Source: Raja brachyura (taxonomy: Eukaryota). From it: DNA of 64,000 bases. Position 1 is the stretch's first letter, and each line of letters begins with the position of its first letter. The notes beneath the pieces were generated by a model. That model was not told where the DNA came from, did no database searches, and worked only from the letters and a program-made list of their open reading frames with translations. Positions 27,131-64,000 of the stretch are shown piece after piece. The stretch spans positions 124,682,001 to 124,746,000 of the forward strand of contig OY740784.1 of the NCBI GenBank assembly GCA_963514005.1, given 5' to 3'. The position numbers were made by a program, and so were the translations under genes.

Positions 27131-27201
27131 AATTCACAATATACCATGATTGAGCCCAACACAATATACACAATATACAACACCATAACACAATATACAC
27201 A

Positions 27202-31639: not shown

Positions 31640-32747
31640 GCCACCCCCGCTGGACCCACACCACCCCCGCTGGACCCACACCAACCCTGCCACCCCCGCT
31701 GGACCCACACCAACCCCGCTGGACCCACGCCAACCCCGCTGGACCCACGCCAACCCCGCTGGACCCACACCAACCCCTCTGGACCCACGCCAACCCCACT
31801 GGACCCACGCCAACCCCGCTGGACCCACGCCACCCCCGCTGGACCCACGCCAACCCCGCTGGACCCACGCCAACCCCGCTGGACCCACGCCAACCCCGCT
31901 GGACCCACGCCACCCCCGCTGGACCCACACCAACCCCGCTGGACCCAAGCCAACCCCGTTGGACCCATGCCAACCCCGCCAACCCCGCTGACCCCCGCTG
32001 GACCCACGCCAACCCCGCTGGACCCACGCCAACCCCGCCAACCCCGCTGGACCCACGCCAACCCCGCTGGACCCACGCCAACCCCGCTGGACCCACGCCA
32101 ACCCCGCTGGACCCACGCCAACCCCGCTGGACCCACGCCAACCCCGCTGGACCCACGCCAACCCCGCTGGACCCACGCCAACCCCGCTGGACCCACGCCA
32201 ACCCCGCTGGACCCATGCCAACCCAACTGGACCTACGCCAACCCCGCCAACCCCGCTGGACCCACACCAACCCCGCTGGACCCACACCAACCCCGCCACC
32301 CCCGAAGGACCCACACCAACCCCGCTGGACCCACACCAACCCCGTTGGACCCCCGCCAACCCCGCTGGACCTGCGCCAACCCCGCTGGACCTGCGCCAAC
32401 CCCGCTGGACCCGCGCCAACCCCGCTGGACCCACGCCAACCCCGCTGGACCCACGCCAACCCCGCTGGACCCACGCCAACCCCGCTGGACCCACGCCAAC
32501 CCCGCTGGACCCACGCCAACCCCGCTGGACCCATGCAACCACGCCAACCCCGCTGGACCCACGCCACCCCCGCTGGACCCACGCCAACCCCGCTGGACCC
32601 ATGCAACCACGCCACCCCCGCTGGAACCCCGCCACCCCCGCTGGACCCACGCCAACCCCACTGGACCCATGCCAATCCTGCTGGACCCACGCCAACCCCA
32701 CTGGACCCACACCAACCCCACTGGACCCACGCCAACCCCGCTGGACC
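31640..32747 (+). repeat. 20-bp minisatellite array 3
   Basis: Same unit; the variant pattern parallels array 1. Confidence 0.95.
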
Positions 32748-33442
32748 AAACCGACGTGGCACAAAGTTGGAGCGAAGTCCGCGGTAAGTTTGCAAGGACA
32801 GAGAGGGACACACAGAGAGGGTCACGGAGGCACGACGTTGAGGCGGTGCATAATGCGTCGAGGTGGCTGCGGGCCGACAGGCCGTTGCCGCGCGGAATTT
32901 TTGAACGGTCAGTTTTTCAGAGCCCCGCGTGATGTCGGGACCAGCTTCGGATAACTCCATACGACTCCGGCGATCGAAGTGGGACTGGCCCCACGAGGCC
33001 AGATGGCTCAAACGACCACGTTAGGTCGCACTCACCAAATAGAGTCGCATGGTGATGGGACAGGCCCTTTAGGCAAGACATTGCCTTTACCACCGCAGGC
33101 AATTGAGGAAATTCAGAGTGTCTCTGGTTCCAGAATTCTGGTTCCAGCCGCGACCATCCGTGCCTGCGCAGTTGGGGAAGCGACGCAAAATGACGCCATC
33201 TTGTCACGCGTGCGCAGTGGACTCGGGCAGGATCAGACTGGCATTTATACTCCACACATTCAGCTCGATGCCTCGCGTCTACTCCAGGTGAGTAGTGGAA
33301 TATTGCGTTGCAGGCGGGGGAGTCTGTGAGGGGATCTAATCCGGCCAGCCCGATGGTTTAGAAACCCATTTCTCCAGGCCCTCTCCTCTCGTCTCCCCCT
33401 GCCGCCAGGGCCCAAGCCACCTTCCGCCCACGCTGGGCCTAT

Positions 33443-39670: not shown

Positions 39671-40307
39671 GAAATATTGTTCTATGTTATATGTTATATT
39701 TAAACCCCTGTCTCACTGTGCGAGTTGTCCCACGAGGTACCCCGAGTTTTCACTCGCGGTAATCCCGTACAATCAACGTAGCGGGAACGTCGGAACTCGC
39801 GGGAGCAACTTAGCGACTCGTGGCGCTAACGGCAGGTACCCGTGAAACTTGTTAACTCGTGAAAAAAATCAAACATGTTTGATATTTTCCATGAGTCAAA
39901 TTTACTGTTCAAGTTAAAAATTGAAACATTTAAACTCGTTGTAATAACGTAGTGGCCCGTGCATTTACCTTAGTGACTCGTGAGTCTACCGTGGCACCGT
40001 CAATGGAAACTTTTCATTTGCCAGGTGGGAAGATAGTTACCCGAGGCCAGACTCCAATAGTAGCAGCATTGAAAGTGACAGCAGAAAGCGGGAGCAGGAA
40101 CCTTCATTTGAATTTGCACTGAGGTTAAATGGATTGTCATCCATGATCATAAAAAGTTGCATATGGATGTAGTGGGTTTATTTACGGGTGACTGTGGCTA
40201 CCGATGACTGTGACTGTGGCTACCGATGACTGTGACTGTGATCCGGGAAGGGACACACACACACACACTATTCACTTTCCCACAAGCATTTACCAAGATT
40301 GTCTAAT

Positions 40308-43300: not shown

Positions 43301-44951
43301 ACCACTGAGGAGGCATGTTAAACCTTATGGGTGGCGTCAAGTTAATATCTTGGGATGAATTGGAAACATTAATTTGGCTCTGGTGGATTGAAAGAAATTT
43401 GAGTTCAGCTATGTACCTTCTGGATAAGCTCAATATAGTGGCGGACACCAGGTCACAAGTATTAATAACGACATCAAGTAGATTAAACCTCCAAATATCT
43501 GCTAAAATTATAGCCTAATATGGAATACCAGATTTCGACCTCTTTGCGTCCAGGTTGAGCCATTGGATACCAACATATGTCTTGAGAACTAGATCCTGGG
43601 GCAGTGGCGATGGACGCGTTTTCGCTACGTTGGGGGGAAATGCGGGGTTTCTATGTTTTCCCCATTCTGCTTCATCAGACAGGTGCTGCAGGATACACAA
43701 CCAGGCTCTGCAACATAAAGGACCATGGATGTCAAACAGCATCGTGCAGAGAGAGTCCAGTAGGAAGCAGTACCTCGCCTACATAAGGATATGGGAGGTT
43801 TCTGTAGTCGGACCTAGACCATCTACATATCTGCTATACTCTCCAAGGTGCTGGAATACTCATGGGTCGTCATTATGACGAGTCCCTCAGTTACAGTGCT
43901 GTATACAGTGCCAGGAGTGCATTGTCGTCCTATCGCTAGATTGGACTGGGATGAGGTAGTGTTGACCCTCCTCAGGAGCTGGTCGCCTATGATGGACTTA
44001 CTCACCTTCAAAGTGCTTATGATAATGGCACTGAACACAGCTCAACAGGTCATGACTTTACAGGAATTAAACCTGGATAGAATGATCGGACCATAATAAG
44101 GTAACTTCTTTATAGAAGAATTACTTACACTACACAGACCTGGGACTACACGTCTGCAAATGGGCATCAGATATATGGAGACGGGTCTGTTTCAGCCATG
44201 GTAACCCACGTCACAGGGTGATTGTGCAGACTATCTCCAGATGACACGAGGTGGTATTCGGTGCAGCAGGTAAGACACTAATATTTTAAATGTCATTCTA
44301 TCAGGGCTGCATCCACATCAGTGGCAAGGACTATGGCGGTGTTCATGGATTTTGGCCTCGCAATAGCGAGCTGGGCCAGTGAATCTACACTTCAGCGGTT
44401 TTATAACTGATTTATAACCGCTCCCGCAACGTTGGCGGATTCAGTTTTAAGTGCTGTTCCCTAAACGTTTGTCCCTGAGTTCAGGGGGTTATTGTTGTAT
44501 TAACAAATGTTATTATTTTTCAGCTTGTTCAAGTCTGAAATACGTTAACATACTTCCTCCATCAGAATTACGGCAGTGTGTGAGCATGGGCGTGGTCCAG
44601 GGCATGTAATCACAGAGCTTTGAAATCTTCACGAAGTCACTCACGTGACTCCGAAGTAAAATAGTAAGATTAAACAAGAACTTACCAGTTTGAAGTTTGA
44701 TCTTTATTTCATGAGGAGTTGCGATGAGGGATTTCGTGCCCTCCACTCCCAACCATCTATTATATATTCAACTGGTATGGTCAAGTTTTAATCTTACTAT
44801 CCTCGGTTTGTGATCTGTGATTCCACACCGCTGCTTTGAAGAATGTCGCGCATGCGTGCCTGGCGGGGTCTTCACGAAATCCCTCATCGCAACTCCTCAT
44901 AAAATAAAGATCAAACTTCAAACTGGTAAGTTCTTGTTTAATCTTACTATT
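40308..44951 (+). mobile_element. DIRS1-type retrotransposon copy C (old and heavily decayed; both ends and ICR retained)
   Basis: ATTTTACTTCGGAGTCACGTGAGTGACTTCGTGAAG left end. ICR at ~44627-44738. Right end ...AATCTTACTATT. Remnants of gag (QQDALALLC), RNase H/MT and YR. Confidence 0.85.
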
Positions 44952-47900
44952 TTGTTGTACATGCTTTCGATATTCATTTTACACCACGTATTGCGACTTT
45001 GTCAAGACCCTTCTGGAAGTCCGTATTCAGGTTGTTAAGGTTTGGCCTCAGCATTCATTGCTTTCAGAAAGATGCTTGCTGCAGACAAACTCGCTACGAC
45101 GATGCACAACTACCCGATACAAACAACATTAGGTTTAGATTTATTACTTTCATGTGTAAAGTTATGTTTTGCATGCTATCCAGTCAAATCAGATAATACT
45201 ATACATAAATAGAAGTAAACTAAATTCAAGTACATAGATCGGGACAGAAACAAAATGCAGATCTTGTCGTTCTCAATATTTTAGCGCTGAATTCCAGAGA
45301 CAAAGTCCAATGGCCACAATGAGGTAGAGGAGAATCGGACGGTCCCCCAATTTATGGAAGGACCATTCAGAAGCCTGATAACAGAGGGAAAGAATGCATT
45401 CCTGATTCTACTGATTTGAGCTTTTAAGCTTCTGTTTCTTCTTCCGATGGGAGCGGGGAGAGGAAGGAATGGCCCGGGTAGGAAAGGTCTTTAGTTCAGT
45501 TGGCTGCTTTCCCGAAGCAGCATGAAATGCACTTGTAGTCAATGGTGGGGAGTTTGGTCTGTGTGGTGAGACGAAGAGATGTAGAGTGGGGGTAGAGTTG
45601 TGGAAGTACCACTAGTTCCCCACACATACAGCCTCTGCTCCTGTCCCTCTGCCCCTGTTCTGCCTGTGCTTCCTGCACACCCTGGCTCTTCTGTACTGTT
45701 CTGTTTTCATTATTGCTTCATACTGCACAGAAACGGGCTCTTCAGGTTGGGAACTACAGTTAGTTTGGAAATTAGCAAGCAGACAAAAATGCTTCCATGT
45801 AGCCTTCCAGCAGTGACGAGACACCATGATCTCATGATCAACCCGATCACCGGAGCCCAACTGTCACTTTAACGACCACAGAAATTGACAAATAATCGCT
45901 TCCTTTGATATTTGAACAACGAAACTCTATTAAACAATGTAACACACAACCTTCAGTATTTTAGCTTGCAGTACACATACATAAATAAACTTATAGTTAT
46001 TCAAAAGACCATGTTTGTAAAATCACACAGGAATATAACTTGATTACTGCAAGCGTGAAACACCTTTTCCCCATTGCTACGATTGTTTCTATAACATGAT
46101 TTTCTATTAAAAAAAAACGGCGTTACATCGCAAAGCAACGATCGTGTTATAGCAGAATTATTGTCCTTGTTGAATGTGAGTGTCTCTGTCTCCATCTTCT
46201 CTTCAAGCCTTTAACCTATTCCTGTTGGGACCCAATACCCATGCTGGTTCTCTCACGCTGGGTTCGGCTTCCCGAACACTATTCCACTCACTGTGTGCGG
46301 CTCCCACGCTCCCGTCAAACTCACCTGCTTCTGATGCCCGCACTCCCTCTAAAGTTCTTGGGTTCAATAGACTCTTCTAAGCCTCGGTTAATGAAAGCAA
46401 GGATTCCGTAAACGTTGCAACCCACCTTGAGCAAACCATCAAGTTCTCGGTGGATAAGAGCTCGGTGGGTCCGGCAATGGAGTGCGATATTTCAGGCCGC
46501 GACCTTTCTTCGGAATGACCATTCTTCACCATCGGTCTGAAGAAGGGTCCCAATAGGAAACGTCCCCCTCCATTCCCTCCACTGAAGCTGCCTGACCCCC
46601 TGAGTTCCTCCAGTGCTTCGTGTTTTGCCCAAGATGACAACAGTTGCAGCTTTCTGTATCACCATCTTCCTAACCCCCACATCTAGCTGTGCTAAATAGA
46701 AACAAATAAATGCAGATGCTGGTTTATACCAAAGATAGACACAAAGTGCCGGAGTAACTCCGCGGACCAGGCAGCATTTCTGGAGAGATGTTTCGGATTG
46801 GGACCCATCTAACGAACGACACCCACCCTTTTTCTCCACAGATGCTGCCTGACCCACTGTGTTACTCTGGCACGTTGTGTGTATCTTTTATCCAGCTGCG
46901 ATGATGCCTTCAAGCAATTTTTTTTCACTTGTACAACAACGTTCCTTGTTGATAGGATATTCCCAATGTTGCTACCATTCATTGCACATGTCCTAATTTA
47001 TCAGCCCTCCTAAAGTGCAATACCTCAGACCTATCAGCATTATATTTTGCTTGCCCCTCCAAATATAACAAACATTCGCCCGCTGGTCGTCTAACTACGT
47101 GATGTGTGTTTCAAATAAATCATAAATATAACTGTACTGGCACTGTACGGTGCGTATTTCCCTTTGTAGGTCATATCAATAGATGCGGCCGCGCTCAATT
47201 CTATCTTTAACTCCAAGCCCCAGGATGGAGATGTCTTCTTTAACACTGTTGCTTCTTTTTTCGACACTCCTCGTGTTTTCCTCACAAATCAGTGAACTAC
47301 TGTTTCTAACTATCTCCTCACGTAACTCTAGCGGATTCTTCTTCAGATATCTCTGTTAGATGTTTCCACACCATTCGCCCAACCAGTGCAGCCTGGATCA
47401 TTGAAACACTACCCAACAAATATGCTCATTGATTGATTGGTTAGAATGCGCCTTCATTCAACTTTGCTCTTTGGAAGCAGCATCTGAAAATCAACACCAC
47501 ATGAATCATCCCTAATGCCGATTTCCCCAATCACTGCACTAATCTACAATTCCCCTCCTGCACTATGCCATCCATTCATTTCCTTCCCATCTCTTAATGA
47601 CATTTTAATATAATTTTGTATTTGCTTTATATCAATTTCCTCTACTGCCATTTATGTAACAAATCTCAATATTGACATTTTATCTGTATGGCTGTATGGT
47701 GACCACACATTTCATTGTACCAAACTGGGACATGACAAATAAATGTATCTTGATATTGGAATGGACAGTCCCAATATTGTTCGAACGGCTCATATTGATA
47801 ACAACGAATGTGTAGGAAAGAACTGCAGATGCTGCTTTAAATCGAAGCTCGACACAAAATGCTGGAGTAACTCAGCGGGACAGGCAGCATCTCTGGAGAT

Positions 47901-48295
47901 CTGAAGAAGGGTCTCGACCCAAAACGTCACACATTTCTTCTCTCCAGAGATGCTGCCTGTCCCGCTGAGTTTCTCCAGCATTTCGTGTCCACCTACCAAT
48001 GAAGGCAGGTCTGTCTGTCTGTCATTCTTGCTCAAATATTTGTTCTCACCTCTCCTCGCTCTCCCTCTCACACACGCAAGCACACGCACACCCAGAAGCA
48101 TTGTAATATAAATTTGAGGAATTCCGAACATATTTTACGAAAAAACTGCACTATGAAACCAATCTTGAAACCATTTTATTTACAACTATACCATGAGTTT
48201 ATATTGTGTAAGGGGCGGAAAAGCACGCTGTTTTAGCCCCATCTCGAAGTTGCAAACCAAATCTCGTTGCACTTAAGTGTAATGACAATAAAAGA

Positions 48296-48326
<31 letters not shown>

Positions 48327-48399
48327 CGCTTGTGCATCTGTATCAGTGAATAGATGTGAAACTGTGAGTGCATCTTGCTGTTGAGTTGGGAGCCGTGTC

Positions 48400-48563
48400 T
48401 CAGCCCCGCCCGCTGCACCACTCGGTTTACTGCCCCGCCCACAGCCGCACCCTCTTTTGCCGGGTATTTAATTCTCTCTAAGAGGGTCCGAAATCCAACT
48501 TCCTTGCAGTTGGTTTGTTGCGAGGTTCTGTACAGAAACAACCGGGTCACACTTCCCAGCGGG
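48400..48563 (+). promoter_or_regulatory. Putative VH promoter
   Basis: Two GC boxes (CCCCGCCC) and TATTTAA ~100 bp upstream of the leader ATG; no canonical octamer seen. Confidence 0.45.
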
Positions 48564-48609
48564 ATGAGGTCGGCGGTTTCACTGAGTCTGTTCCTGGCGT
48601 TAATAGTCC
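48564..48609 (+). pseudogene. IgH leader exon (MRSAVSLSLFLALIV)
   Basis: Hydrophobic signal peptide, phase-1 GTGAGT donor, and an intron 48610-48783 ending TTGCAG that joins in frame to RVHS-DVVLTQ. Confidence 0.9.
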
Positions 48610-48783
48610 GTGAGTAATGAGTTGGACAAATTCCTCATGCAAGTTTCTCAGTGGTATATCCACTACACCGTTCCCCTTCTACCCACTCTAGAACCCTCCT
48701 AATTTATTTCCTATTAATAATTAGAGTCGGGGATCAATGGTCAATAATTTGTCCTCACCATTCATGCCTTTTTTAACTTGCAG

Positions 48784-49123
48784 GCGTCCATTCCGATGTC
48801 GTTCTAACTCAGCCCAAGACAGAGACCGTCCGTCCTGGAGGCTCCATCACACTGACCTGCAAACCCAGCGGGTTCGATGTTAGCAGCTACTGGATGGCTT
48901 TGGTCCGTCAGGTCCCCGGGCAGGGGCTGGAGAGGCTGCTTCGCTACTACTATTCGGGTAACAAGAACTTCGCTCCGGGGATAGAGAGCGAATTTACTCC
49001 GTCCAAAGACAATTCGAATAATATGTTCACCGTGGCGGCCAGGAACCTGAGGATCGAAGACACCGCTGTCTATTACTACTGGCCACTACTGGGGAGGAGG
49101 CGACTTGATGACCGGAACCAGCG
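48784..49123 (+). pseudogene. Germline-fused VH-JH exon, out of frame
   Basis: DVVLTQPKTETVRPGGSITLTCKPSGF..VRQVPGQGLE..EDTAVYYY, then in the +1 frame HYWGGGDLMTGTS and a G|GTAAG donor. No heptamer/nonamer. FR2 Trp is Leu and the second Cys is absent. Confidence 0.88.
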
Positions 49124-50399
49124 GTAAGAAACTTCATCCCATTCAGTCTCTAGATGTATCCAGTTGCAATTTTATTCTATATTTCCAATAATTGTATTAA
49201 ATTGTTCTTCTACATTAATTCCCCATTCATTGCAATGTTGGATCGATGTTGCTCTAGAATGTTATATGATTCCGCTCCAGATTTAAGCTTGCCTTATGTG
49301 CTATGACTTTCGATCCTTTGACTATGAAACGGATGCGGTTTAGTTCCTAATTAGTGGGAAAATGCGCATCAATTTGCTTTCACTGTGCTTGCTAATTGTT
49401 TGAAATTGTTGTGGTCCTTGGTCTGTGATGCATCGAACTGTATTTTCTGATCAACAGCAGGTACTTTGTCTCAGTTTGTTTCGTCTCCGCGCGTATGAAA
49501 CAAACGACAGAAACGGATAAATCCTGGGTGTAAAATTTTCAAGTGTTTAAAGTGTATGTATTAATTGGTGGAATCGCCTTGCCACCTTTAATCCAATCGC
49601 TAACAAAACTTGCATGGAAGAAGTAATAATGTCTTGCAGCAAAACACAGAAGTGCAAGGGTCAGCGTCAGGGTTAATTGCGCAGTTATATATCTTGAAGT
49701 AGAATGAATAGGAAGGAACTGTGGATGCTGATTTGTGCTGGCGATTGACACAAAGAAGGACCAACTCTGCCTGTCCCGCTGAGTTGCTCCAACTTTTTTC
49801 GTCTATCTTGAAGTACAATGAGTTGGTCATGTGAACCAATGTTACAGCAAAGCTAAGAATGCAAAGTCCGTGAAACGTGATCTATAGAATGACAATGTAC
49901 CGGGTGTACGAGGGGACAGAGGAACTAGGGTGACGGAGGAACTGAAGGGAATTCACATTATATGGATATGGTATCTATGTAATCCATGTGTATTGTGTTA
50001 TTCATCGTTATTTCAACAATGATTGGCTCTGTGGTCATTGGGACAATGAATTTTGGTGGCCTTTGGACAGAGATATTTGGATTTTTGTGAAGAGTTTCAG
50101 CAAATGTGTGTTAAGCGATTCAACCCATCACGGTATGATTCAGCCGGTCATTGTGGGAGATGATATTGTTGCACAATTTGACGTGTTTGTACGTTCAATT
50201 CGAATGGCAGCGACCGGGTATTGCTGTTGTATGAAGTGACTGATTAGGTCATTTCAATAAATGCAAAGGAGATACATGTTTAAAAATAAAAATACGAAGA
50301 AATTACTAGAAATCATAAATAGGAACAGTAAATGTCGCAAACGCCCAGAGGGTCACGCAGCCCGTGGCGAAAGACAAATCCCATAGAGGGGAGCCGAAT

Positions 50400-50645
50400 G
50401 ACAGCTGCTAGAGCCAGAGACACGACTTTGTTCCCAAAATCAGGTGCAGACTGTGCGTTCTCCCTGTGGTTTCTTACTGGTGCTCTGCTTTCCTCCCACA
50501 ACCCAAAAGAGTGCAGGTTTGCAGGTTAATTGACCCGGGTGATTGACCCAGGTGGGTCGGGGGTGGATGCAATAGTGCACTAACGTGGAACGCGTGTGTC
50601 GCCGTGGATTTCGTTGGCAGAAGGATCTATTTCTATGCTATATCA
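50400..50645 (+). mobile_element. Degenerate V-SINE (HE1-like)
   Basis: Resembles the V-domain core GTTCTCCC..GGTTTC..GGTGCTC.G.TTTCCTCCCACA..CCAAA. Confidence 0.6.
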
Positions 50646-51180
50646 GTAATTGAAACTGAATTCGCCATGGTTTAGTCTCCCAACGATAGTCGACCTGGAA
50701 AATGCTTGGCTTTCTCTTTCCACAAATGCTGCCTAACCCAATGACCCATTTCTCTGTTTTCTGTCAAAGATCACGAGTTTACCCATTTGGAAAATGTGTT
50801 GACTGTAAAATGGGGAAATTTCAGAACAGCTATTGTTTGGGCATAACTTTTAATCCATGGATTTATTAGAAAGAGAATTTGAATTTGTGTTTGTCTCTGG
50901 CTCCCAATGTCATTTAAACATAAAATGTTCCTCTATTTAGCCAATTGCTAATGAAAAATGTCAGTTTTACGAATAGTTATGGTAAAAAAAATGAAAAATT
51001 GGGAAATGGAATGTTGGAAACAAAATTTACTCTGCTATTTTAGACAATAGGTCATACGGTCCTCGAGCCAGCACCGCCATTCAATGTAATCATGGCTGAT
51101 CATCCACAATCAGTACCCCGTTCCTGCCTTCTCCCCATATCCCCTGACTCCGCTACCTTAATTTTAATTATAAAACTAAG

Positions 51181-51280
51181 AGTATCCCACTAATCCTTGA
51201 ACAGAGTGGGAATTGAAATCGATGGCTTAAAGGAGGGGTTGAGTGACGTTCAAATTTACATTTGCATTTATTTAATTAAA
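51181..51280 (-). promoter_or_regulatory. Octamer-containing block, arm 1 of an inverted pair (candidate intronic enhancer)
   Basis: ATTTGCAT at 51260-51267; 89/100 ungapped identity to the reverse complement of 55409-55508. Confidence 0.45.
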
Positions 51281-51675
51281 ACATTGATTTAGCAACATTG
51301 TGCATTTTCGCTATTAAAAGTAGACTTCCTCTATATGAATGAAAGCCTTTTCCTGTGAAGTCACGAACCAAACTCAGATTTTTTTAATAGATTGCAGGTT
51401 ATAATTTATAATTTGTATCTTTTTTTATTCGTTTCCTATCGGACAGTGATACAATGTTAATCATTCGTTCTTCAGTGCCGATGACATTGTAAACGTAAAC
51501 TCGTTTTACAGATGCTGGAAACGGAAATGAGCATCATTGCATAAACATTCATTTAAATGTATTATTGAATTCATTAAGGCAATGGTGCACACAGACAAAC
51601 ATTGAAACCTGTGCCAATTTATTTAATTACGAATTATTTATATGCTACATTTAGTTTCCAGAAGTTGTGGTATAT

Positions 51676-54600
51676 AGAAACATAGAAACATAGAAAATAG
51701 GTGCAGGAGTAGGCCATTCGGCCCTTCGAGCCTGCACCGCCATTCAATGTGATCATGGCTGATCATCCAACTCAGTATCCCGTACCTGCCTTCTCTCCAT
51801 ACCCCCTGATCCCTTTAGCCACAAGTGCCACATCTAACGCCCTCTTAAATATAGCCAATGAACTGGCCTCAACTACCTTCTGTGGCAGAGAATTCCAGAG
51901 ACTCACCACTCTCTGTGTAAAGAATGTTTTCCTCATTTCGGTCCTAAAGGAATTCCCCCTTATCCTTAGACTGTGACCCCTTGTTCTGGACTCCCCCAAC
52001 ATCGGGAACAATCTTCCAGCATCTAGCTTGTCCAACCCCTTAAGAATTTTGTAGGTTTCTATAAGATCCCCCCTCAATCTTCTAAATTCCATCGAGTACA
52101 AGCCGAGTCTATCCAATCTTTCCTCATATGAAAGTCCTGCCATCCCAGGAATCAGTCTGGTGACTCTTCTCTGTACCCCCTCTATGGCAAGGATGTCTTT
52201 CCTCAGATTTGGAGACCAAAACTGTACGCAGTACTCCAGGTGTGGCCTCGCCAAAACCCTGTACAACTGCAGTAGAACCTCCCTGCTCCTATACTCAAAT
52301 CCTTTCGCTATGAATGCTAACATACCATTTGCTTTCTTCACTGCCTGCTGCACCTGCATGCCTACTTTCAATGACTGGTGTACCATGACACCCAGGTCTC
52401 GTTGCATCTCCCCCTTACCTAATCTGCCACCATTCAGATAATAGTCTACCCTCATGTTTTTGCCACCAAAGTGGATAACCTCACATTTATCCACATTGTA
52501 CTGCATCTGCCATGCATCTGCCCATTCACTCAGCCTATCCAAATCACCCTGCAGCCTCCAAGCATCCTCCTCACACCTAACTATACCCCCCAGCTTGGTA
52601 TCATCTGCAAATTTGGAGATGTTGCATTGAATTCCCTCGTCCAAATCATTAATATATATTGTAAATAGCTGGGGTCCCAGCACTGAGCCTTGCGGCACCC
52701 CACTAGTCACTGCCTGCCATTCTGAAAAGGACCCGTTTACTCCTACCATTTGCCTCCTGTCTGCTAGCCAGTTCTCTATCCACATCAATACTGAACCCCC
52801 AATACCGTGTGCTTTAAGTTTGTATGCTAATCTCTTATGCGGGACCTTGTCGAAAGCCTTCTGAAAGTCTAGATATAACACATCCACTGGTTCTCCCTTA
52901 TCCACTCTACTAGTTACATCCTCGAAAAATTCTATCAGATTTGTCAGACATGATTTACCTTTCGTAAATCCATGCTGACTTTGTCCAATGATTTCACCAC
53001 TTTCCAAATGCGCTGCTATCCCATCTTTAATAACTGACTCTAGCAGTTTCCCCACTACCGATGTTAGACTAACTGGTCTGTAATTCCCCGCTTTCTCTCT
53101 CCCTCCTTTTTTAAAAAGTGGGGTTACATTAGCTACCCTCCAATCCTCAGGAACTACTCCAGAATCTAAGGAATTTTGAAAAATTATCACTAATGCATCC
53201 ACTATTTCTGTGGCTACCTCCTTGAGTACTCTGGGATGCAGACTATCTGGCCCTGGGGATTTATCGGCCTTCAATCCGTTCAATTTACCCAACACCACCT
53301 CCCGGCTAACCTGGATTTCACTCAGTTCCTCCATCTTATTTGACCCCCGTTCCACTGCTATTTCCGGCAGATTATTTATGTCTTCCTTAGTGAAGACAGA
53401 ACCAAAGTAGTTATTCAATTGGTCTGCCATGTCCTTGTTCCCCATGATCAATTCACCTGTTTCTGACTGCAAGGGACCAACATTTGTTTTAACTAGTCTC
53501 TTTCTCTTTACATATCTATAAAAACTTTTGCAGTCAGTTTTTATGTTCCCTGCCAGTTTCCTTTCATAATCTATTTTCCCTTTCCTAATTAAGCCCTTTG
53601 TCCTCCTCTGCTGGATTCTGAATTTCTCCCAGTCCTCCGGTAGGCTGCTTTTTCTGGCAAATTTGTATGCCTCATCTTTTGTTTTTATACTATCCCTGAT
53701 TTCCCTTGTTATCCATGGATGCACCACCTTCCCTGATTTATTCTTTTGCCAAACTGGTATGAACAACTTTTGTACTTCATCCATGCAGTCTTTAAATACC
53801 TTCCATTGCACATCCACTGTCAACCCTTTAAGAATCACCTGCCAGTCTATCTTGGCCAATTCACATCTCATACCTTCAAAGTTACCTTTGTTCAAGTTCA
53901 GAACCCTTGTATCTGACTTAATTTTGTCACTCTCCATCCTAATGAAGAACTCAACCATATTATGGTCACTCTTGCCCAAGGGGCCACGCACAACAAGACT
54001 GCTAACTAACCCTTCTTCATTACTCAATACCCAGTCTAGAATAGCCTGCTCTCTCGTTGGTTCCTCCACATGTTGGTTGAGAAAACTATCCCGCATACAT
54101 TCCAGGAAATCCTCTTCCTCAGCACCCCTGCCAATTTGATTCACCCAATCTACATGCAGATTGAAGTCACCCATTATAACCGTGTTACCCTTGTTGCACG
54201 CATTTCTAATTTCCTGTTTGATGCCATCCCCAACTCCAATACTACTGTTAGGTGGCCTGTACACAGTTCCCACTAGCGTTTTCTGCCCCTTAGAGTTTCG
54301 CAGCTCTACCCATATCGATTCCACATCCTCCACGCTAATGTCCTTCCTTTCTATTGCATTAATCTCCTCTCTCACCAGCAACGCTACCCCACCTCCTTTT
54401 CCTTTTCGTCTATCCCTCCTGAATATTGAATATCCCTGGATGTTCAGCTCCCAGCCTTGGTCATCCTGGAGCCAAGTCTCCGTGATTCCAACTATAGCAT
54501 AGTCATTAATCGCTATCTGCACCTTCAACTCATCCACCTTATTACGAATGCTCCTCGCATTGAGACACAAAGCCTTCAGGCTTGTTTTTACAACACTCTT

Positions 54601-54885
54601 ACTCCTTATACAATTATGTTGACAAGTGGCCCCTTTCACATCGATCCCTATTACACTTGGCCATACTCTCCTATCCCTTTGTGAGCTTTCTTCCCCGTTA
54701 ATTCTGGGGTCATTAACCATCGCTTTACTCTCTTTCCCTCTAACTCCGTCCTCGACTATCCCATTTGATACCCCACCCCCCTTATTCAGTTTAAAACCAT
54801 CCGTGTAGCAGTGGCAAACCTGCCGGCCAGAATGCTGGTCCCCCACCTGTTAAGATGCAATCCGTCCCTTTTGTACAGTTCCCCC
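51676..54885 (-). mobile_element. CR1 LINE in the J-C intron, 5'-truncated within ORF1
   Basis: CTATGTTT-type tail, full ORF2, and the ORF1 C-terminus GELYKRDGLHLN...VLN* (esterase-type DxxH) at ~54786-54885. Confidence 0.95.
51772..54720 (-). CDS. CR1 ORF2 protein (APE endonuclease + RT), intact; 982 aa from the first ATG
   Basis: Uninterrupted ORF 51772-54846 with endonuclease and RT motifs. Confidence 0.9.
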   Translation of the reverse strand: MVNDPRINGEESSQRDRRVWPSVIGIDVKGATCQHNCIRSKSVVKTSLKALCLNARSIRNKVDELKVQIAINDYAIVGITETWLQDDQGWELNIQGYSIFRRDRRKGKGGGVALLVREEINAIERKDISVEDVESIWVELRNSKGQKTLVGTVYRPPNSSIGVGDGIKQEIRNACNKGNTVIMGDFNLHVDWVNQIGRGAEEEDFLECMRDSFLNQHVEEPTREQAILDWVLSNEEGLVSSLVVRGPLGKSDHNMVEFFIRMESDKIKSDTRVLNLNKGNFEGMRCELAKIDWQVILKGLTVDVQWKVFKDCMDEVQKLFIPVWQKNKSGKVVHPWITREIRDSIKTKDEAYKFARKSSLPEDWEKFRIQQRRTKGLIRKGKIDYERKLAGNIKTDCKSFYRYVKRKRLVKTNVGPLQSETGELIMGNKDMADQLNNYFGSVFTKEDINNLPEIAVERGSNKMEELSEIQVSREVVLGKLNGLKADKSPGPDSLHPRVLKEVATEIVDALVIIFQNSLDSGVVPEDWRVANVTPLFKKGGREKAGNYRPVSLTSVVGKLLESVIKDGIAAHLESGEIIGQSQHGFTKGKSCLTNLIEFFEDVTSRVDKGEPVDVLYLDFQKAFDKVPHKRLAYKLKAHGIGGSVLMWIENWLADRRQMVGVNGSFSEWQAVTSGVPQGSVLGPQLFTIYINDLDEGIQCNISKFADDTKLGGIVRCEEDAWRLQGDLDRLSEWADAWQMQYNVDKCEVIHFGGKNMRVDYYLNGGRLGKGEMQRDLGVMVHQSLKVGMQVQQAVKKANGMLAFIAKGFEYRSREVLLQLYRVLARPHLEYCVQFWSPNLRKDILAIEGVQRRVTRLIPGMAGLSYEERLDRLGLYSMEFRRLRGDLIETYKILKGLDKLDAGRLFPMLGESRTRGHSLRIRGNSFRTEMRKTFFTQRVVSLWNSLPQKVVEASSLAIFKRALDVALVAKGIRGYGEKAGTGY

Positions 54886-55408
54886 TTTAACCTTTATTAA
54901 TTCAGATATTATATTGAGAGAGTTTTTAATCCGTACCAATGCAATCTCATACATGTTTTTAATCTGGTATGAATGTAATGTTCTTGTCGGCTGGTTTGCT
55001 TTTTGGAATTTACTTGCAATTACTGTCGGCATACAATGATCGGTATATTGTCGTGAGTGATGGGGAAACAAAATACAGTCAAAAAAGTGACATTTTAAGT
55101 GTGTTATTTGTCGTCAAATAACAAAGCTACCATTTCAATCCCATCCACCCCCTTAGTTGGTTTTGTTCGATCGACACATTTAAGGCCAAATTTCACGAAC
55201 AAGATTGATTGTTTATCTCATTTTTTCTCCCAAATTATGTTCGGGAGCCCGATATGGAAAACCACAGCTTTCCTTCCATTTTCTGTGCTTTTATCGGATA
55301 ATCTCTGAACCATTTATAAAACAAAAACTCTTCCCTCTTTCTCCAAATCAAAAGTTTAGCCATGGGCACTCTCAGTGGCCCAAGCGAAACCTACCTAAAT
55401 TATTTAAT

Positions 55409-55508
55409 TTAAATTAAATATATGCAAATGTAATTTTGAACGTCAGTCAAACCCTCCTTTGAACCATTGATTTGAATTCCCACTCTGTTCACGGATTAGT
55501 GGGATACC
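55409..55508 (+). promoter_or_regulatory. Octamer-containing block, arm 2 of the inverted pair
   Basis: ATGCAAAT at 55422-55429. Confidence 0.45.
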
Positions 55509-55574
55509 TGTTCTATAATTCTAATAGCAGAGAAAATGTCATTTCCAACATTGCACATTTCACCAATTTCCATT

Positions 55575-56040
55575 TAGTTGGGTACATGGAACAGCCGCTG
55601 ACACAGACTGCCCGATTCCCTGAACTCTTCATCCTGTATCCATGCAGAACTCATCGACTTCATTGTCTATAAACTTTGACCGTACGATCAAATTCACTGG
55701 GTCTATCCCCGACACATACCTCCCCTTTGTTAATCTCACCGTCTCCATCGCAGGAGATAGACAATTGACTGACATAAATTACAAATCTACCGACTCCCAC
55801 AGCTATCAGGACTACACCTCTTCCAACCTTGCCTCCTGCAAAGACTCTATGTCCTACTCCCAAATTCATCCATCTCCACGCAACTGCTCCCAAGATGAAT
55901 TGTTCCATACCAGGATATCCGAGGTCCTCATTCTTTAGGGAGCGGGTATTCCCCACTTTTACCATAGATGAGGCCCTTGCATGTGTCTACACTATCCCGT
56001 AGTTCCGCCCTTACTCCATCATCCCCAGTCGCAACAAGGA
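55575..56040 (+). mobile_element. Penelope-like RT fragment
   Basis: KFT..LPFVNLTV..TDINYKSTDSHSY.DYTSS..CKDS..YSQ. Confidence 0.7.
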
Positions 56041-56164
56041 GTTTGGTGAGGTTGTAACCCATAGGCCAACGTTAGTTATAGCCACTGAACATTGAGCATT
56101 CCTGAGAAACCCTGGGAATTTTACAGTTATAAATACGGGTGGCCTAGCGATATATTTCCAACTT

Positions 56165-56930
56165 GAAATTGAATTGAATGAATGAATTGCCTTTATTGTC
56201 ATTCAGACCTTTCGGTCTGAACGGAATTTCGTGCCTGCAGTCATACATATATAAAAATAACAAAACCACACAGTAAACACAAAAAATTAACATCCACCAC
56301 AGTGAGTTCACCAAACACCTCCTCACTGTGGTGGAAGGCAAAAGTCTTAGAGTCTCTGTCTTCTTCCCTCCTTGTTCTCCCTCTGCGCTGAGGAGATCCA
56401 GGCCTCTGATGCTGCCGTCCACCAGGCCCGCGGCTGAGCCTCCGAAACCGGGCCGCCACCACCGCTGTCGCCGTAATGCCGCCACAGGGCCCGCCGCCGG
56501 AACGCCACTGGAGCACCTCATCCCCGAAGCCAGGTCGCCGCTGGAGCACCACAGCTGCGAAGCCAGGTCACCGCTGGAACATCGCTGGAGCACCGCAGCC
56601 CCGAAAGCCAGGTCGCCGCTGAAGCTCCGAAAGCCGTGCCGCCGCCGCTGGAAGCTGGAGGCCGCCAGCTCCGCCATTAGGGCCTCAGCACAGACGGAGA
56701 CGGTGTCGGGGGACACGACAAGAAAAGTCGCATCCCCCCGAAGGGAGAGACTAAAACCCCGTTTCTCCCGCCTTCCCCCTCCCCCCCCCCCCACCCCCCC
56801 CACCCCCCCCCCCCCCCACACACATACACAACCTAACAAACCAAAAATAATCCCTAAAAACAGGCGCGAAGACAAAAATAAAATAAAAGACAGACGGACT
56901 GCAGGTGAGCCGCAGCTGTCAAGCAGCGCT
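56165..56930 (-). mobile_element. Non-autonomous retroposon with a LINE-like 3' stem-loop and short-repeat tail
   Basis: Minus strand ends TTCAGACC-GAAA-GGTCTGAA TGACAATAAAGG followed by ATTC-type repeats. Confidence 0.5.
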
Positions 56931-57191
56931 TACATTTGACAGTACATTTGACAAATTGTGCGTAAATTTTACAGTAACTGCCAGATATGGGCACCCCAAG
57001 AAGTTTTCAGCCAATGTTTTCCAAGGTGGGATCAAGGCGGAATGATTAACTAATAGTTTATGATACTCGGGTGAAGTTGCATGAAATAGAAAACTGCGTA
57101 ACGAATTGCTGTGTAATGATTCCTCGCACTGAATATTTTGCAAAACGAGCAAGAGAGAGAGTTTAACATTCATGTGGCCTTTGCCTTGCAG

Positions 57192-57500
57192 CGGCTCCAT
57201 CCACGCCCAACCCCTTCATTCTCTTCACCTGCGAGGATCACGGCTCCAGTGGTCCGTTCACCTATGGTTGTTTGGCGTTGGGCTATTCCCCTGCGGGCGC
57301 CAGTGTTTCTTGTAAGAAAGATGATAACCAACTGACCACCGGAGTGAAGCACAACCCGGCAGTGTTCAATAAGTTGGGAACTTACACCTGGAGCAGCGAG
57401 CTAACCATCACCGAGGCGGAGGCAAGGGGAGACAACATCTTCTGCATCGTTCAGCACTGCCAAAGTGAAAGTAGCAGGTTCGTGTTGGGGTGCACCGCGT
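57192..57500 (+). pseudogene. IGHM: IgM constant exon Cmu1 (3' boundary uncertain)
   Basis: TTGCAG acceptor; AAPSTPNPFILFTCEDH..YGCLALGYSP..KKDD..TTGVK..PAVFNKLGTYTWSSELTITE..IFCIVQH resembles elasmobranch Cmu1. The core Trp is replaced by Cys, and I see no clear phase-1 donor before the repeat at ~57515. Confidence 0.85.
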
Positions 57501-57514
57501 GGCCGAGGGTGGAG

Positions 57515-58705
57515 TTGAGAGTCAAGAATGTTTTATTGTCATATGTCCCAGATAGAACAATGAAATGTTTGCATGTACACACGCACACATACTCAAAACA
57601 AACAATAATAGTGCAATAATAATAATAATCTATTGTAGTTCAGAGCATATGAGGTTGTAGTGTTTAATAGCCTGATGGTTGTCGGGAAGAAGCTGTTCCT
57701 GAACCTGGACGTGACAGTTCTCGGGCTCCTGTACCTTCTTCTTGATGGTAGTGGTGAGATGAGTGTGTGGCCACGATGGTGTGGGTCTCTGATGATGTTG
57801 GCTGCCTTTTTAAGGCAGCGACTCTGATACATCCCTTTAATAACCATATAACCATATAACAATTACAGCACGGAAGCAGGCCATCTCGGCCCTTCAAGTC
57901 CGTGCCGAACAACTTTTTTCCCTTAGTCCCACCTGCCTGCACTCATACCATAACCCTCCATACCCTTCTCATCCATATGCCTATCCAATTTATTTTTAAA
58001 TGATACCAACGAACCTGCCGCCACCACTTCCATTGGAAGCTCATTCCACACCGCTACCACTCTCTGAGTAAAGAAGTTCCCCCTCATGTTACCCCTAAAC
58101 CTCTGTCCCTTAATTCTAAAGTCATGTCCTCTTGTTTGAATCTTCCCTATTCTCAAAGGGAAAAGCTTGTCCACATTAACTCTGTCTATCCCTCTCATCA
58201 TTTTAAAGACCTCTATCAAGTCACCCCTTAACCTTCTGCGCTCCTGAGAATAAAGACCTAACTTATTCAACCTATCTCTGTAACTTAGCTGTTGAAACCC
58301 AGGCAACATTCTAGTAAATCTCCTCTGTACCCTCTCTATTTTGTTGACATCCTTCCTATAATTGGGCGACCAAAATTGTACACCATACTCCAGATTTGGT
58401 CTCACCAACGTCTTGTACAATTTTAACATTACATCCCAGCTTCTATACTCAATGCTCTGATTTATAAAGGCTAGCATACCAAAAGCTTTCTTTACCACCC
58501 TATCTATATGAGATTCTACCTTCAAGGAACTATGCACGGTTATTCCCAGATCCCTCTGTTCAACTGTATTCTTCAATTCCCTACCGTTTACCATGTAATG
58601 ATGGGGGGTCCGAGCTGGTGAAGGAATGTGCCAGTGGTCACAACATTTTTCAGTATTTTCCGCTCCTGGATGTTCAAGTTGCCGAACCAGGCCATGATGC
58701 AATCC
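57515..58705 (-). mobile_element. Rex/Babar-type LINE 3' part with a nested CR1 fragment (~57840-58597)
   Basis: IIRDPHH..LPSRRRYRS..RFRNSFFPTTIRLLN. CR1 RT C-terminus in ORF 57923-58702. Confidence 0.8.
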
Positions 58706-59622
58706 ATATAATTCACGGGATTTGACAATTGAAGATAAGTATTTGATTTAATGGGCCCTGTTCGGTTTTATTCTTCATGTCATACTGACTGTAGAACATT
58801 CATCTGAGCTCCACAATCCACCTAGTCAAAGACAGACAATTCATTTCTATATATTAATGTGAAAGTGCCGTTGCATCTGCAGATGTCATGTAACATCTGG
58901 AACGCTGATGAAATTCCATTCTGAACTTAACTACCAAAGGCTTAGTCTCAATAGAAAGTGACACATGCCTTACCCGCCACATTATTCCAGCCCTTTGCTT
59001 TTTTTAATCAAACAACATCTGCTGTTCTTGTTTCGATAAAACAGTGAGTTTTGTTTCCTGGCACCGAGGGGAGAAAGCGATATTCATAATACCGAAGCAC
59101 TGACGTTCCTTCTTGGGGCGGAACGAAAGGCGGTACTTCAAATATCGAGATAATTCACCATTTACAAAATCAAAGAAAACTAAAATTTACCTGTGGAGAG
59201 CTTGGAAAGAGTGCTGATCAATTTATTATCATCACGAGCAAATCCATGTAATTCACGAGGAACTGATCCATCTGTAGATAAGTTACATTTTAACTCGTGA
59301 ACAATTGAAGCGGCTGAGTGCATCATGTTGAGAACATTATCAAGAATATTAAAAGTACAGACACAGCCACAGAGGACAAAAGCAGAACAGTAAGCCCATT
59401 ACATCCCTGTGACAATGACTTACCGAGCTATAATTTCCCCATTTACAAGCACTCGATGTACTGTGATAAATACAGAATTTAGCAGCATCTCAGGAAGTCC
59501 AAGTGAGTGGACGGCTACTTTTAATCAGAAAAAGTGATTGTTTTTGGGGGGTCAAAATATTGGGTGTCTTTATTAATCGACGATAGTTTATGAGCAATTC
59601 CAATGTAGTTATTTTCTTTCAG

Positions 59623-59934
59623 ACCGCGTGGTACATCATCCTACCCTCGCCATTACCATAACTGCCCTTGATGAAATCAAGCATAGCAGAAAAGCGATCG
59701 CCGTGTGTTTGGTCAATGATTTCACCCCAGTGAAATTTACTGTGAACTGGCTGAAGGATGGCGAGCCTTTGCATTTTGGCTTCGTCACCTCTCCCGCCTT
59801 CCAGGTGAACGGTAACTTCTCGGCGACCAGCCAGTTGACATTCCCAGCTGCAGGGTGGTTCGGAGGTTTCGTCTATACCTGCCAAGTCAACCATGAAAAA
59901 GATTTGAAAAGCCTAAACATCAGTAGGTCTCCAG
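59623..59934 (+). CDS. IGHM: IgM constant exon Cmu2 (open, with intact splice sites)
   Basis: TTTCAG acceptor and G|GTAAG donor; C1-set motifs VCLVNDFTP, VNWLKDG, GFVTSP, NGNFSATSQL, YTCQVNH. Confidence 0.9.
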
Positions 59935-60029
59935 GTAAGAAATACATCTGCGGTATGTCTCGGGATATTAGTGTAAACATTAGCGCTCACTGTGGTAGTA
60001 CTTCACTGACAGTGTGAAAGCCTATGTGT

Positions 60030-61430
60030 AGATGGAAGTGCTGATGCTGGTTTGCACCGAAAATAGAAACATAATTCCGGAGTTACAGCGGGTTAGGCAT
60101 CTGTAGAGGAAAGGAATATGTGACGATTCGGGTCGAGACTCTTCTTCCTACTTAGAATCAGAGGAGAGGGAAACTAGAGGTATGGGAATGTACAAACAAA
60201 TGAGTGAATGGTATGAAAAGAACAAATCAAAGCCAGCAACAATGAACAAGGAAAGGTCGAGGCCACATTGGCCCAGTGTTGCTCTGGAAATGGTGATAAC
60301 GAGTAGATACAGAGTGATACGAAACAGGACCGCAGTGAAACTAGTCGGATGACGAGGGTGGGAGGTGGCCGGAGAGAGATGGAATGCAAGGGTTACATGA
60401 AATTAGAAAAGTCAATATTGATACCGCTGAGTTTTAGGTTCCCGAAGCGAAACATGAGGTGTTGTTCCTCCAATTTGCGTTTAGCTTCACTCTCACAGTG
60501 GAGGAAGCCCAGGACAGAAAGGACAGCGTGGGAATGGGACGGGGTTTTAATGTGCTTGGCAAGCTGGTGATCGCCTTGAGCAAGGCGGACAGAGCGAAGG
60601 TGTTCGGCGAAACGACCGCCAGAGTCTGCGCTTTGATTCACCGATGTACTGGAACATCTAGAACAGCGGATGCAGTGGTTGGTGGAGGTGCAAGCGAACT
60701 TCTGCCTCATCTGAAAGGACTCTCGGGGTCCCTGGATGAAGTCGAGTGAGGAGGTATCCTTATAAGTGTTGCGTCTCCTGCTGTTGCCGGATGGGATGGT
60801 TGCTGCAGGAAGGGGTGGATTAAACGGAGTTGCGGAGGGAACGTTCTCTGAGAATGGTGGAAAGGGGTGCAGATAGAAAGATATGATCGATGGTGGAAAC
60901 CCGTTGGAGGTGGTGAGGACTTTTAGGACCTTGTCCCTGTTGAGACGGGGGGGGGGGGGGGGGGGGGGCAAATGGGAGAAAGAGCGGAGCTGCGGGATAC
61001 TGAGGAGACATGGGTGAGGGCATCATCTATGATAAAAGAGGGGAAACGCGGTTCCCTAACGAATGAGTCCTTGTATGGAACAGCTCATCTTGGGTGCAGA
61101 TACGATGGAGAGAGAGGATACGTGACCAGGGGTAGAGTCCTTGCAGGAGGAAGGATGAGAAGTGTCGCCCAGCAAGCTGTGGTTGTCCGTAGGTTTGTAA
61201 TAGAAGTTTGACGATAGCTTTCACCTGTGATGGAGACGGTGAGAGCAAGAAAGTGGAGGGAGGTCTGAGATCGTCCAAGTGAATTTGAGTGCAGGCTGGA
61301 AATTGGTAATGATGATAATGATGTCCATGAGTTTTCCATTGGTGCAGGGAGTGGCCCCTTTTGAGTCGTGAATCTAGCAGGGAAAGAGGCAGCCATAGCT
61401 GGGGCCAATACGAGCCCATGGGCGCATGCT
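60030..61430 (-). mobile_element. Degenerate Penelope-like element (RT end, GIY-YIG endonuclease, pLTR)
   Basis: CIRCSRC..RFAEHLRSV..RKLEEQHLMFR..GINIDFSNF. Confidence 0.8.
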
Positions 61431-61462
61431 ACGCCTTTGATTTGGAGGAATTGGGAGAATTC

Positions 61463-64000
61463 TTTTTTTTTTTTTGTTAATATTTTTTATTAGAAGTTAA
61501 TGCATATTGATACATATTAAGACAATTTAAAATGTAAGGAAAAAAAGAGAAACAAAAGAATTTACTATTCATCTCATACATTCTTAATATTTATAAAATT
61601 TACAGTCATTCTTGTTTATACTTCTACATATTTTTTTATTATTTTTAATAAAGAAGGAAATTAATAGAAAGAAATAATAAAAGAAATTAAAAAAATAATA
61701 AAAATAGAAAATCAATAATATGAGTGGAGTTTTAAACATTCTGTTCTACATTGGAGATATATCAGTGATCTATTATATATAATTCTTCATCCGCTCCCCG
61801 TCCAGGTTTCAGTCAGGCCCTCGAACCGAGCCCATTTGTCCCTTTAGATAATCAATAAATGGAGACCATGTTCCTCTAAACTGATCTAGCCTGTCCGAGA
61901 GGACAAGTCTTAATCTTTCCAAATGAAGTGTCTCCGACATTTCTGTAATCCACATTTTAATAGTGAGGTTGGTAGGACCTTTCCAAAATTTTAGTATTAA
62001 TTTTTTACCAATTATTAAACTATAATCGATAAAAAATCATTGTTTTGTTGTTAGTGATTGATCAGTTTCTAATATACCTAATATAATTAATTTGGAATCT
62101 GGATATAGATTTGTATTAACTACCTTCAAAATTATCTTAAAAATTTCTGACCAAAAATTAGTAATTTTAATACATTTGGTAAATGAATGTGTTAGGTTGG
62201 CTTCTAGGTGTTGACATTTGTCACATATAGCAGAAACATTTGGAAAAATTCTATTTAGTTTGGACTTTGAGAGATGTAATCTATGTAAAATTTTAAATTG
62301 TATCAGAGAGTGTCTGGCATTTAATGAGCAGTAGTGTATATGTTGTAAACTTTCCTCCCATACTTCTAAACTAATTGATTGTCCTAATTCACTTTCCCAT
62401 GCTTGCCTATATATTTCCGACGGTGGTGCATCATTTTCCAATAAAATATTATAAATATATGATATTAATTTTTCTGTGTTCGGATGTTTATTTAAACATT
62501 CATCTAGAATTTCTGTCTTTCTATTTCTAAATTCTTGTGTATTTGATTTAACATAATCTCTAATTTGTAAATATCTAAAATATTCTTTTGAGTGTAGTCC
62601 ATATTTTTGTTGTAATTCTTGAAATGAAAGAAAAAGGTTTTCCCTATAGAGATCCCGTATCTTATTAATTCCATAATTTTTCCATTGTGAAAAACCTTTA
62701 TCCATCCTAGAGGGTTTAAAAGTGATATTGTTTGCAATGTGAAGATCCAGTGGTATACATTCCAATTTTAAAGATTTTTTTAATTGTTTCCAAATACGTA
62801 TCCCATTTTCTATTATTGGGTGTAATTTGGTATTAGCAAATATAATGGAGTTAATTTCAAAAGGTAGGCAGTCTTCCTTTTCCAATTTTAACCAATTCGG
62901 CTGTGTATCTAATTCTTCCAACCAAAAATTCATATTTTTAATATAAACTGCCCAATAGTAAAACATAAAATTAGGCAACGCTAAACCTCCACTTATTTTT
63001 GCTTTACATAGATGTTTCTTATTTATTCTATGGCTCTTATAATCCCAAATAAAATTTGTAATTATAGAATCTACCTTCTTAAAAAAAATTTTGGGAAGAT
63101 ATATCGGCATCATTTGAAATAAATATAATAATTGCGGGAGAAAGATCATTTTTATCGCATTTATTTTACCTAACATTGAGATAGGTAATGCTTTCCAATA
63201 TAGAATATTCTTAAGTAATTTATTCAATAAAGGTGGGAAATTAGATTTAAATAAAGAGTCATGTCTTTTTGTTACATAAATTCCAAGATATTTAATTTTT
63301 TCATTTGCTATCGTAAAAGGGAATCGTTGTAATATGTGTGAGTTATTTCCCATTATTGACATAAGTTCACTTTTATTCCAATTAATTCTATATCCTGAGA
63401 GTAGACCAAATTGAGTTATTAAATCTAGCAGGGTAGGTATACTAATTTCAGGCTTTGTAATATAGAGTAATACATCATCTGCGTATAAAGAAATTTTATT
63501 TTCCGTTTCTTTGGTTTCATTCCCGTATATTTTAGGGTGTAATCTCACACGCTGTGCTAATGGTTCTATTGCTAACGCAAAGAGTAGTGGTGATAGCGGA
63601 CAACCTTGTCTACAGCCTCTGAATAAGTTAAATTTAGTTGATAACATTTGATTTGTTTGTATTCTAGCTGTCTGACTGGTGTATAATAATTTGACCCACG
63701 TTATAAACTTTTCTCCTAGCTGGAAGGATTCCAAAACCGAGAATAAATAAGACCATTCAACCTGATCGAAAGCTTTCTCTGCATCTAATGAGATAATTGC
63801 TAGGCCTTTACTAATATTTCTTTTCGAGTATATAATATTGAATAATCGTCTCAGGTTATATGAAGAATATCGTTTTGGTATCAATCCAGTCTGGTCTGGG
63901 TGTATTATTTTGTTGATCACCATATTTAATCATGTGCTAATATTTTAGTTAATATTTTTTGATCAGTGTTTAAAAGAACTATGGCTCTATACGATCCTGG
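61463..64000 (-). mobile_element. L1-clade LINE, ORF2 RT and C-terminal part with poly(A) tail; continues off the window
   Basis: ORF 62037-63923: DAEKAFD, GCRQGCPLSPLLF, YADD, and a Cys/His knuckle CDKC..H....C. T-run at 61463-61476. Confidence 0.92.

Follow-up and report, generated by a model that had tools for sequence, protein, structure and literature searches.

The heavy-chain (IgH) genes of sharks and skates are organised as many autonomous clusters whose promoters lack an octamer. In mammals the enhancer Emu is located in the J-C-mu intron approximately 2 kb behind J, where it carries an octamer in AT-rich surroundings (PMC1852116, PMC1800861), the octamer being positioned outside the Emu core (PMC1800861). 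The mouse enhancers hs3a and hs3b are inverted copies with octamer-factor sites and are 97% alike (PMC4757795, PMC4000994, PMC3068965), and the catfish enhancer Emu3', which lies 3' of mu, has a core with two variant octamers and needs uE5 (PMC1800861). Shark IgH genes have been described to lack an upstream octamer (PMC2435157), sharks possess OCA-B (PMC13043367), and a model of IgH exclusion in sharks and skates depends on a promoter-enhancer complex which its source refers to as not yet identified (PMC2435157). Here we describe an inverted duplication from an IgM cluster of the skate Raja brachyura, where it occupies the J-C intron; the analysed window comprises 64,000 nucleotides (assembly GCA_963514005.1, contig OY740784.1, positions 124,682,001 to 124,746,000; coordinates below refer to this stretch). 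Based on the sequence analysis we propose, with a probability of about 0.5, that this duplicate of approximately 170-180 bp represents the octamer-based part of a duplicated per-cluster B-cell enhancer. In its design such an enhancer would resemble the inverted mouse copies hs3a and hs3b more than a member of the Emu type.

Neither an elasmobranch IgH enhancer nor a J-C inverted repeat was detected in the full-text literature searched, to which subscription papers, supplements and the key nurse-shark intron paper did not belong. The same negative result was obtained with the excerpts of PMC2435157, PMC13043367, PMC3308330, PMC2192082, PMC12227049, PMC4279169, PMC5192425, PMC13670022 and PMC6795676.

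As stated by the original prediction, the inverted pair is located in the IgM J-C intron, between the J donor (49124) and the C-mu1 acceptor (57191). Its arms begin 1.9 kb behind J, and the following parts were distinguished:

50989 to 51042, plus strand: left arm, outer block, 79% to 55523-55575 reversed
51161 to 51281, plus strand: left arm, core, with GTGGGAATT at 51206, TGACGTTCA at 51244, a variant octamer at 51254 and the perfect octamer at 51260-51267
51282 to 51673, no strand: left part of the spacer, 392 bp, 32% GC, covered by contigs in all four sequencing runs introduced below
54891 to 55407, no strand: right part of the spacer, 517 bp, 36% GC
55408 to 55575, minus strand: right arm, unbroken, 168 bp, with the octamer at 55422-55429, TGACGTTCA at 55437-55445 and GTGGGAATT at 55475-55483

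Recomputation reproduced the 11 mismatches per 100 ungapped columns that had been reported between 51181-51280 and the reverse complement of 55409-55508. In a BLAST search of the arms against the window the core pair (51166-51281 and 55408-55520) shared 88% identity over 116 columns (E ~1e-33). The weaker similarity suspected further outward was recovered as an outer block (50989-51039 and 55523-55575; 79% over 53 columns), making the arms larger than first described. After removal of a CR1 fragment from the left arm the whole repeat comprises 180 columns at 81%, and removal of a large CR1 insert leaves a spacer of approximately 909 bp, in agreement with the arm spacing of 0.9 kb originally estimated.

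The spacer is AT-rich and non-coding. With regard to the AT-rich matrix attachment regions that flank enhancers of the Emu type, all 12 of the lowest-GC 300-bp windows in 48300-60000 begin at 50701-51401 or 54851-55251. A perfect AT-only palindrome of 20 bp (55401-55420) was observed at the inner end of the right arm, just inside the octamer. A 24-base arm pattern had two matches in the window, which correspond to the two arms, and none in 100 shuffles; between 48001 and 64000 the arms are the sole inverted pair apart from one decayed repeat pair. The similarity between the arms did not extend beyond 55575, the best scores in all four stretches compared being no higher than the maximum of 200 shuffles, and a search of 48000-60000 against Rfam gave no match at E up to 1.

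The three motifs named by the original prediction (octamer, CRE-like and Ikaros/RBPJ-like; CRE, cAMP response element) were each found once per arm. However, the CRE-like and the Ikaros/RBPJ-like motif had been selected post hoc, as blocks bounded by mismatches. The octamer, ATGCAAAT in both arms, has no further perfect copy in the IgM unit, while the whole window contains three (2.9 expected). In 20,000 simulations the chance of an octamer in 168 bp of arm composition was 0.025. A catfish-type variant octamer overlaps the perfect octamer in the left arm only and is lacking in the right arm. Both arms furthermore keep the words GGGAA and TGGAAA and contain GGAA cores, as in Ets sites of the uA/uB (PU.1) kind, with neither GGGGAA nor GAGGAA. 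The halves TCCCAC/GTGGGA point the opposite way to the consensus of a paired Su(H)/RBPJ site, and such a site was rejected. The expected lack of an octamer in the VH (heavy-chain variable) promoter applies to this cluster, as the 600 bp preceding the leader ATG contain none within one mismatch; a CRE within one mismatch is likewise absent from this stretch.

The copy level of the left arm was estimated from public sequencing runs. Of the 21 runs retrieved with 48400-51670, each contained less than half of the query words and none is recorded as RNA. The contigs of four of them (X1, X4, X10 and X18, from organisms A, B, D and E and from four studies) were mapped at 80% likeness to a stretch that comprises neither the right arm nor the large CR1 or C-mu. 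Depth is expressed relative to the median over 19 bins containing neither repeats nor arms, referred to below as the control; the remaining 11 of the 30 bins hold repeats, repeat edges or arms. Contig depth is no copy number and was used solely as an order-of-magnitude contrast.

Across the four runs the outer-arm bin reached 1.1-3.0 times and the bin 51260-51369 0.5-1.6 times the control. The corresponding values were 460-1,800 at 49720, where a short repeat is located, and 1.5e4-6e4 in the CR1 fragment; the contrast was unchanged when X1 was left out as a possible source. Since the depth of the arm resembles that of the V exon and the intron and is far below that of CR1, the arm is not the end of a high-copy transposon, and its abundance matches that of the IgM cluster. 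A high-copy family of transposons or of terminal inverted repeats (TIRs) is thus ruled out by an arm depth of 0.5-3.0 times the control in all four runs, with the limit that families below 80% likeness escape detection. Position 51238 showed 2.0, 1.7, 0.7 and 2.4 times the control depth; as these values are within or barely above the control range, a two-fold depth was not used as a sign of two arms per cluster.

The left arm is in place in other clusters and organisms. X4 record 32 continues from the arm core into the spacer (51192-51460), and X4 record 31 and X18 record 23 continue from the upstream intron into the outer arm block. The arm is thus part of the IgM cluster unit in four organisms, and no high-copy TIR family was seen in their runs; hence two of the outcomes that the original prediction had named as speaking against it, arms occurring at many non-Ig loci as TIRs and arms lacking in other IgM clusters, were not observed. 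A joint from 51040 to 51182, which skips the CR1 fragment and carries the 14 junction letters of the right arm, was present in three of the four runs (X1, X4 and X18; one letter differs in X1 and X4) at 0.55-1.1 times the control depth. At 51238 the base of the right arm accounts for nearly all of the depth in all four runs, so that the difference between the arms at this position is private to the present copy.

In X10 and X18, further joints lead from the CR1 fragment to 51255/51256; with sides of 21 letters they were put down to chance. In an X4 contig of depth 82, position 50991 is joined to 51186 via 15 other letters; this contig appears to be a shorter variant of the arm from a more distant cluster. 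The arm patterns had no match in metagenome and viral contigs, where skate DNA is not expected.

Several results weigh against an enhancer. An octamer anywhere in the CR1-free intron has a chance of 0.34, and the two octamers count as one event. The 11 mismatches would spare the octamer with P 0.38 and all three motifs with P 0.03, but two of the motifs were chosen post hoc. The boxes uE5, uE2 and uE3 and a uB-type site, searched for with consensus motifs, are absent from both arms; the only E-box-like word there is CATTTG, which overlaps the octamer once in each arm, and CAGGTG at 50441 and 50549 is positioned upstream of the arms, at or within a short repeat. Conservation of the core does not significantly exceed that of the outer block (Fisher p 0.10 if gaps are counted and 1.0 for substitutions alone). 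All 30 bins, the neutral intron included, were covered in the four runs, and since the whole intron is equally common to the runs, the presence of the arm elsewhere reflects inheritance and is no evidence of selection. Moreover, X10 has no joint of the right-arm type, such a junction could derive from either arm, and among the joints listed none of the contigs shows both arms in one other cluster. Finally, the teleost IgH enhancer is located 3' of C-mu and not in the J-C intron (PMC1800861); the window analysed here does not extend to sequences 3' of C-mu.

These results raise the possibility, which we regard as real yet on balance doubtful, that the pair is a neutral relic. It may have arisen by local inverted duplication or as the TIRs of an extinct low-copy non-autonomous DNA transposon (approximately 1.25 kb with the spacer), been fixed in an ancestral IgM cluster and then been copied passively, the octamer being a coincidence of AT-rich sequence. 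The geometry of 170-bp arms around a 0.9-kb AT-rich, non-coding spacer is that of a miniature inverted-repeat transposable element (MITE), the core shows no excess conservation and the intron readily takes in mobile elements. The divergence of the arms would also fit free drift since the duplication. Divergence from the window was 2.5-8.7% in the 12 contig pieces of highest depth among the 32 listed and 5-16% in the other 20; the arms differ by 11%, which exceeds the former range and is within the latter. On the other hand, no dispersed family was detected at 80% likeness, and the octamer in the block has the low chance given above. No target duplication was found at the outer arm ends (longest common flank word 5 bases), although the right end adjoins another, decayed insertion. 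A mobile origin would in any case be compatible with later use as an enhancer. If the arms are neutral, they serve only as a marker for dating cluster duplications.

Shark switch joints are said to have been found in the J-C intron by Zhu in 2012, and a structural role of the arms has to be considered. Pairing of the arms, either within the IgM pre-mRNA or within a displaced DNA strand, could give rise to a long stem that focuses AID, switching between clusters or splicing; the motifs would then be incidental. The core duplex is predicted at -144 kcal/mol as RNA and -93 as DNA, values obtained with no shuffle control and of a kind expected of any such repeat. Such a role would agree with shark inter-cluster switching in the absence of S regions (PMC4279169) and with the halved hypermutation after removal of the palindrome of the mouse 3' regulatory region (3'RR), in which the enhancers were kept (PMC4757795). 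However, AID hotspots are sparse in the arms (no AGCT; 78-83 WRC/GYW per kb versus 110-119 in V and the upstream intron), the arms begin as much as 1.9 kb behind J, and with 11% mismatches they fall well short of mammalian 3'RR palindromes, whose arms are 94-97% identical. We therefore consider this explanation improbable.

Even less credible is the idea that the arms are two inward-facing promoter-like cassettes instead of a distal enhancer, from which convergent, sterile non-coding transcripts of the I-mu-like kind would cross the spacer. It derives from TATTTAATT, the 9-mer that forms the TATA-like box of the V promoter and also starts one base after each octamer. Five of its six matches in the window (48465, 51269, 51620, 55401 and 55412) are located in the promoter, the arms or the spacer, where 0.34 were expected. 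However, this shuffle expectation ignores the local AT richness, three of the matches stem from the duplication and a palindrome, and a gap of one base would scarcely fit both factors.

Under the proposed enhancer function, the inverted duplication, whose arm divergence of 11% suggests that it predates the main cluster family, would have been copied along with the IgM clusters. Oct1/Oct2 together with OCA-B would bind the octamer of each arm, possibly assisted by factors at the CRE-like and the GGGAA/GGAAA blocks, and the arms would loop to the GC-box/TATA promoter approximately 2.5 kb away. The arm octamers may thus supply the POU input that the VH promoters of other vertebrates carry themselves.

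A more far-reaching and rather unlikely generalisation would be that every elasmobranch IgM minilocus has its own small palindromic J-C enhancer, in which two facing octamer modules make up for the octamer that the VH promoter lacks. By competing for POU/OCA-B factors in limiting supply, these modules would let only a few clusters fire per B cell. If true, a cis-element would for the first time be assigned to an IgH gene of cartilaginous fish, octamer enhancers of the intronic type would date back to the base of the jawed vertebrates, and the inverted-twin design of mouse hs3a/hs3b would have arisen twice. As a cluster-linked, octamer-bearing candidate of 170 bp, the element makes the promoter-enhancer complex of the exclusion model directly testable, and it bears on an ancestral intronic IgH enhancer with the 3' position in teleosts being derived.

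The host cluster and the insertions in its J-C intron comprise the following features:

48406 to 48473, plus strand: VH promoter region with two GC boxes, the TATA-like TATTTAATT at 48465-48473 and no octamer
48564 to 48609, plus strand: VH leader exon, assigned by translation and GT donor
48784 to 49123, plus strand: germline-joined V-J exon, Pfam V-set E 1e-10, 63% to P0003
51043 to 51160, minus strand: CR1 3'-end fragment splitting the left arm, homology 51049-51155, 83-88% to five other CR1 ends of the window
51674 to 54890, minus strand: young 5'-truncated CR1-type long interspersed nuclear element (LINE), Pfam RVT_1 E 2e-32 and Exo_endo_phos
55576 to 56017, plus strand: decayed repeat at the outer end of the right arm, 71% to 60975-61348 reversed
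57192 to 57469, plus strand: C-mu1 exon, 80% to P0002, Pfam C1-set
59622 to 59935, plus strand: C-mu2 exon, identity 84% with an Amblyraja radiata protein and 82% with P0002, Pfam C1-set

The V-J exon contains no D and no recombination signal sequence, its J is out of frame with V, and the second Cys and the Trp of framework region 2 are missing. In C-mu1 the conserved Trp is changed and the similarity stops approximately 10 residues early; C-mu3 and C-mu4 are outside the window. Due to the V-J frameshift and the lost Cys and Trp residues the host IgM cluster is a pseudogene, a feature which, like the CR1 fragment in the left arm, the original prediction had not noted. X1 record 2 (depth 8) spans the V-J joint with 29 gap letters, mostly extra, which points to a related cluster whose VDJ is likewise joined in the germline and encodes a longer complementarity-determining region 3.

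The element has probably become a relic in the present cluster, whose gene is a pseudogene and in which two CR1 insertions have since interrupted the left arm and the spacer. The view that CR1 had disrupted the spacing of the enhancer with a functional effect could not be upheld: the gene is already dead on coding grounds, and neither CR1 can be blamed for a loss of function in this copy.

The CR1 fragment is flanked by a possible 6-bp target duplication (51037 and 51161). The large CR1 contains an intact endonuclease/reverse transcriptase frame of 1024 amino acids (open reading frame 2, ORF2; 51772-54846); its 5' end is approximate, between 54846 and ~54890, with homology reaching 54772. It is 98.4% identical to a copy 48 kb off (960-4055) with a broken frame, and this second copy together with the intact ORF2 indicates that the CR1 family has recently been active. 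The two short frames of the decayed repeat at 55576-56017 had no Pfam match; by its motifs this repeat may be Penelope-like.

Elsewhere in the window, decayed elements with inverted ends, presumably DIRS-like, were observed at 40307-44953 and 10058-13050 / 20391-23263, with termini in common at 44576-44953, 10058-10448 and 22515-23263. Large minisatellite blocks with a 20-bp period inside repeated units of 1.5-2 kb, and a telomere-like CAACCC array adjoining two N gaps, were observed at 26557-36000 and 24692-25190. The intron after C-mu2 contains an AT-rich LINE-like stretch on the minus strand (61460-64000), which we assume to be L1-like.

Among the systems available for comparison, MITEs and other non-autonomous TIR transposons share with the skate pair the long imperfect inverted ends and the AT-rich non-coding centre, but differ by the high-copy family and the target duplication, neither of which was found for the skate arms, the former in four runs. 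The catfish enhancer Emu3' is likewise octamer-dependent, and one of its variant forms overlaps the octamer of the left arm; however, it is located 3' of mu and has uE5, whereas the skate arms are intronic, lack uE5 and have no variant in the right arm.

With Emu the skate arms share the position in the J-C-mu intron approximately 2 kb behind J, the octamer and the AT-rich surroundings. Compared by description, Emu is single-copy with a core that acts via E-protein and Ets sites, whereas the skate block is doubled and inverted and has no E-box or uB site of this kind. An Emu-like make-up, as implied by the original prediction, was therefore not supported: uE5, uE2, uE3 and a uB-type site are missing from the arms and the Emu octamer is described as lying outside the core (PMC1800861), so that the skate block is not assigned to Emu.

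The mouse 3'RR (hs3a / hs1,2 / hs3b) resembles the skate pair in that inverted blocks with octamer sites flank a central segment within the IgH locus. It differs by its location 3' of C-alpha, its size of approximately 25 kb, its arm identity of 94-97% and its proven central enhancer hs1,2, whereas the skate pair is intronic, measures approximately 1.25 kb and has arms of 170-180 bp at 81-89% with no known central enhancer. The likeness between the two, drawn by analogy, would at most be convergent.

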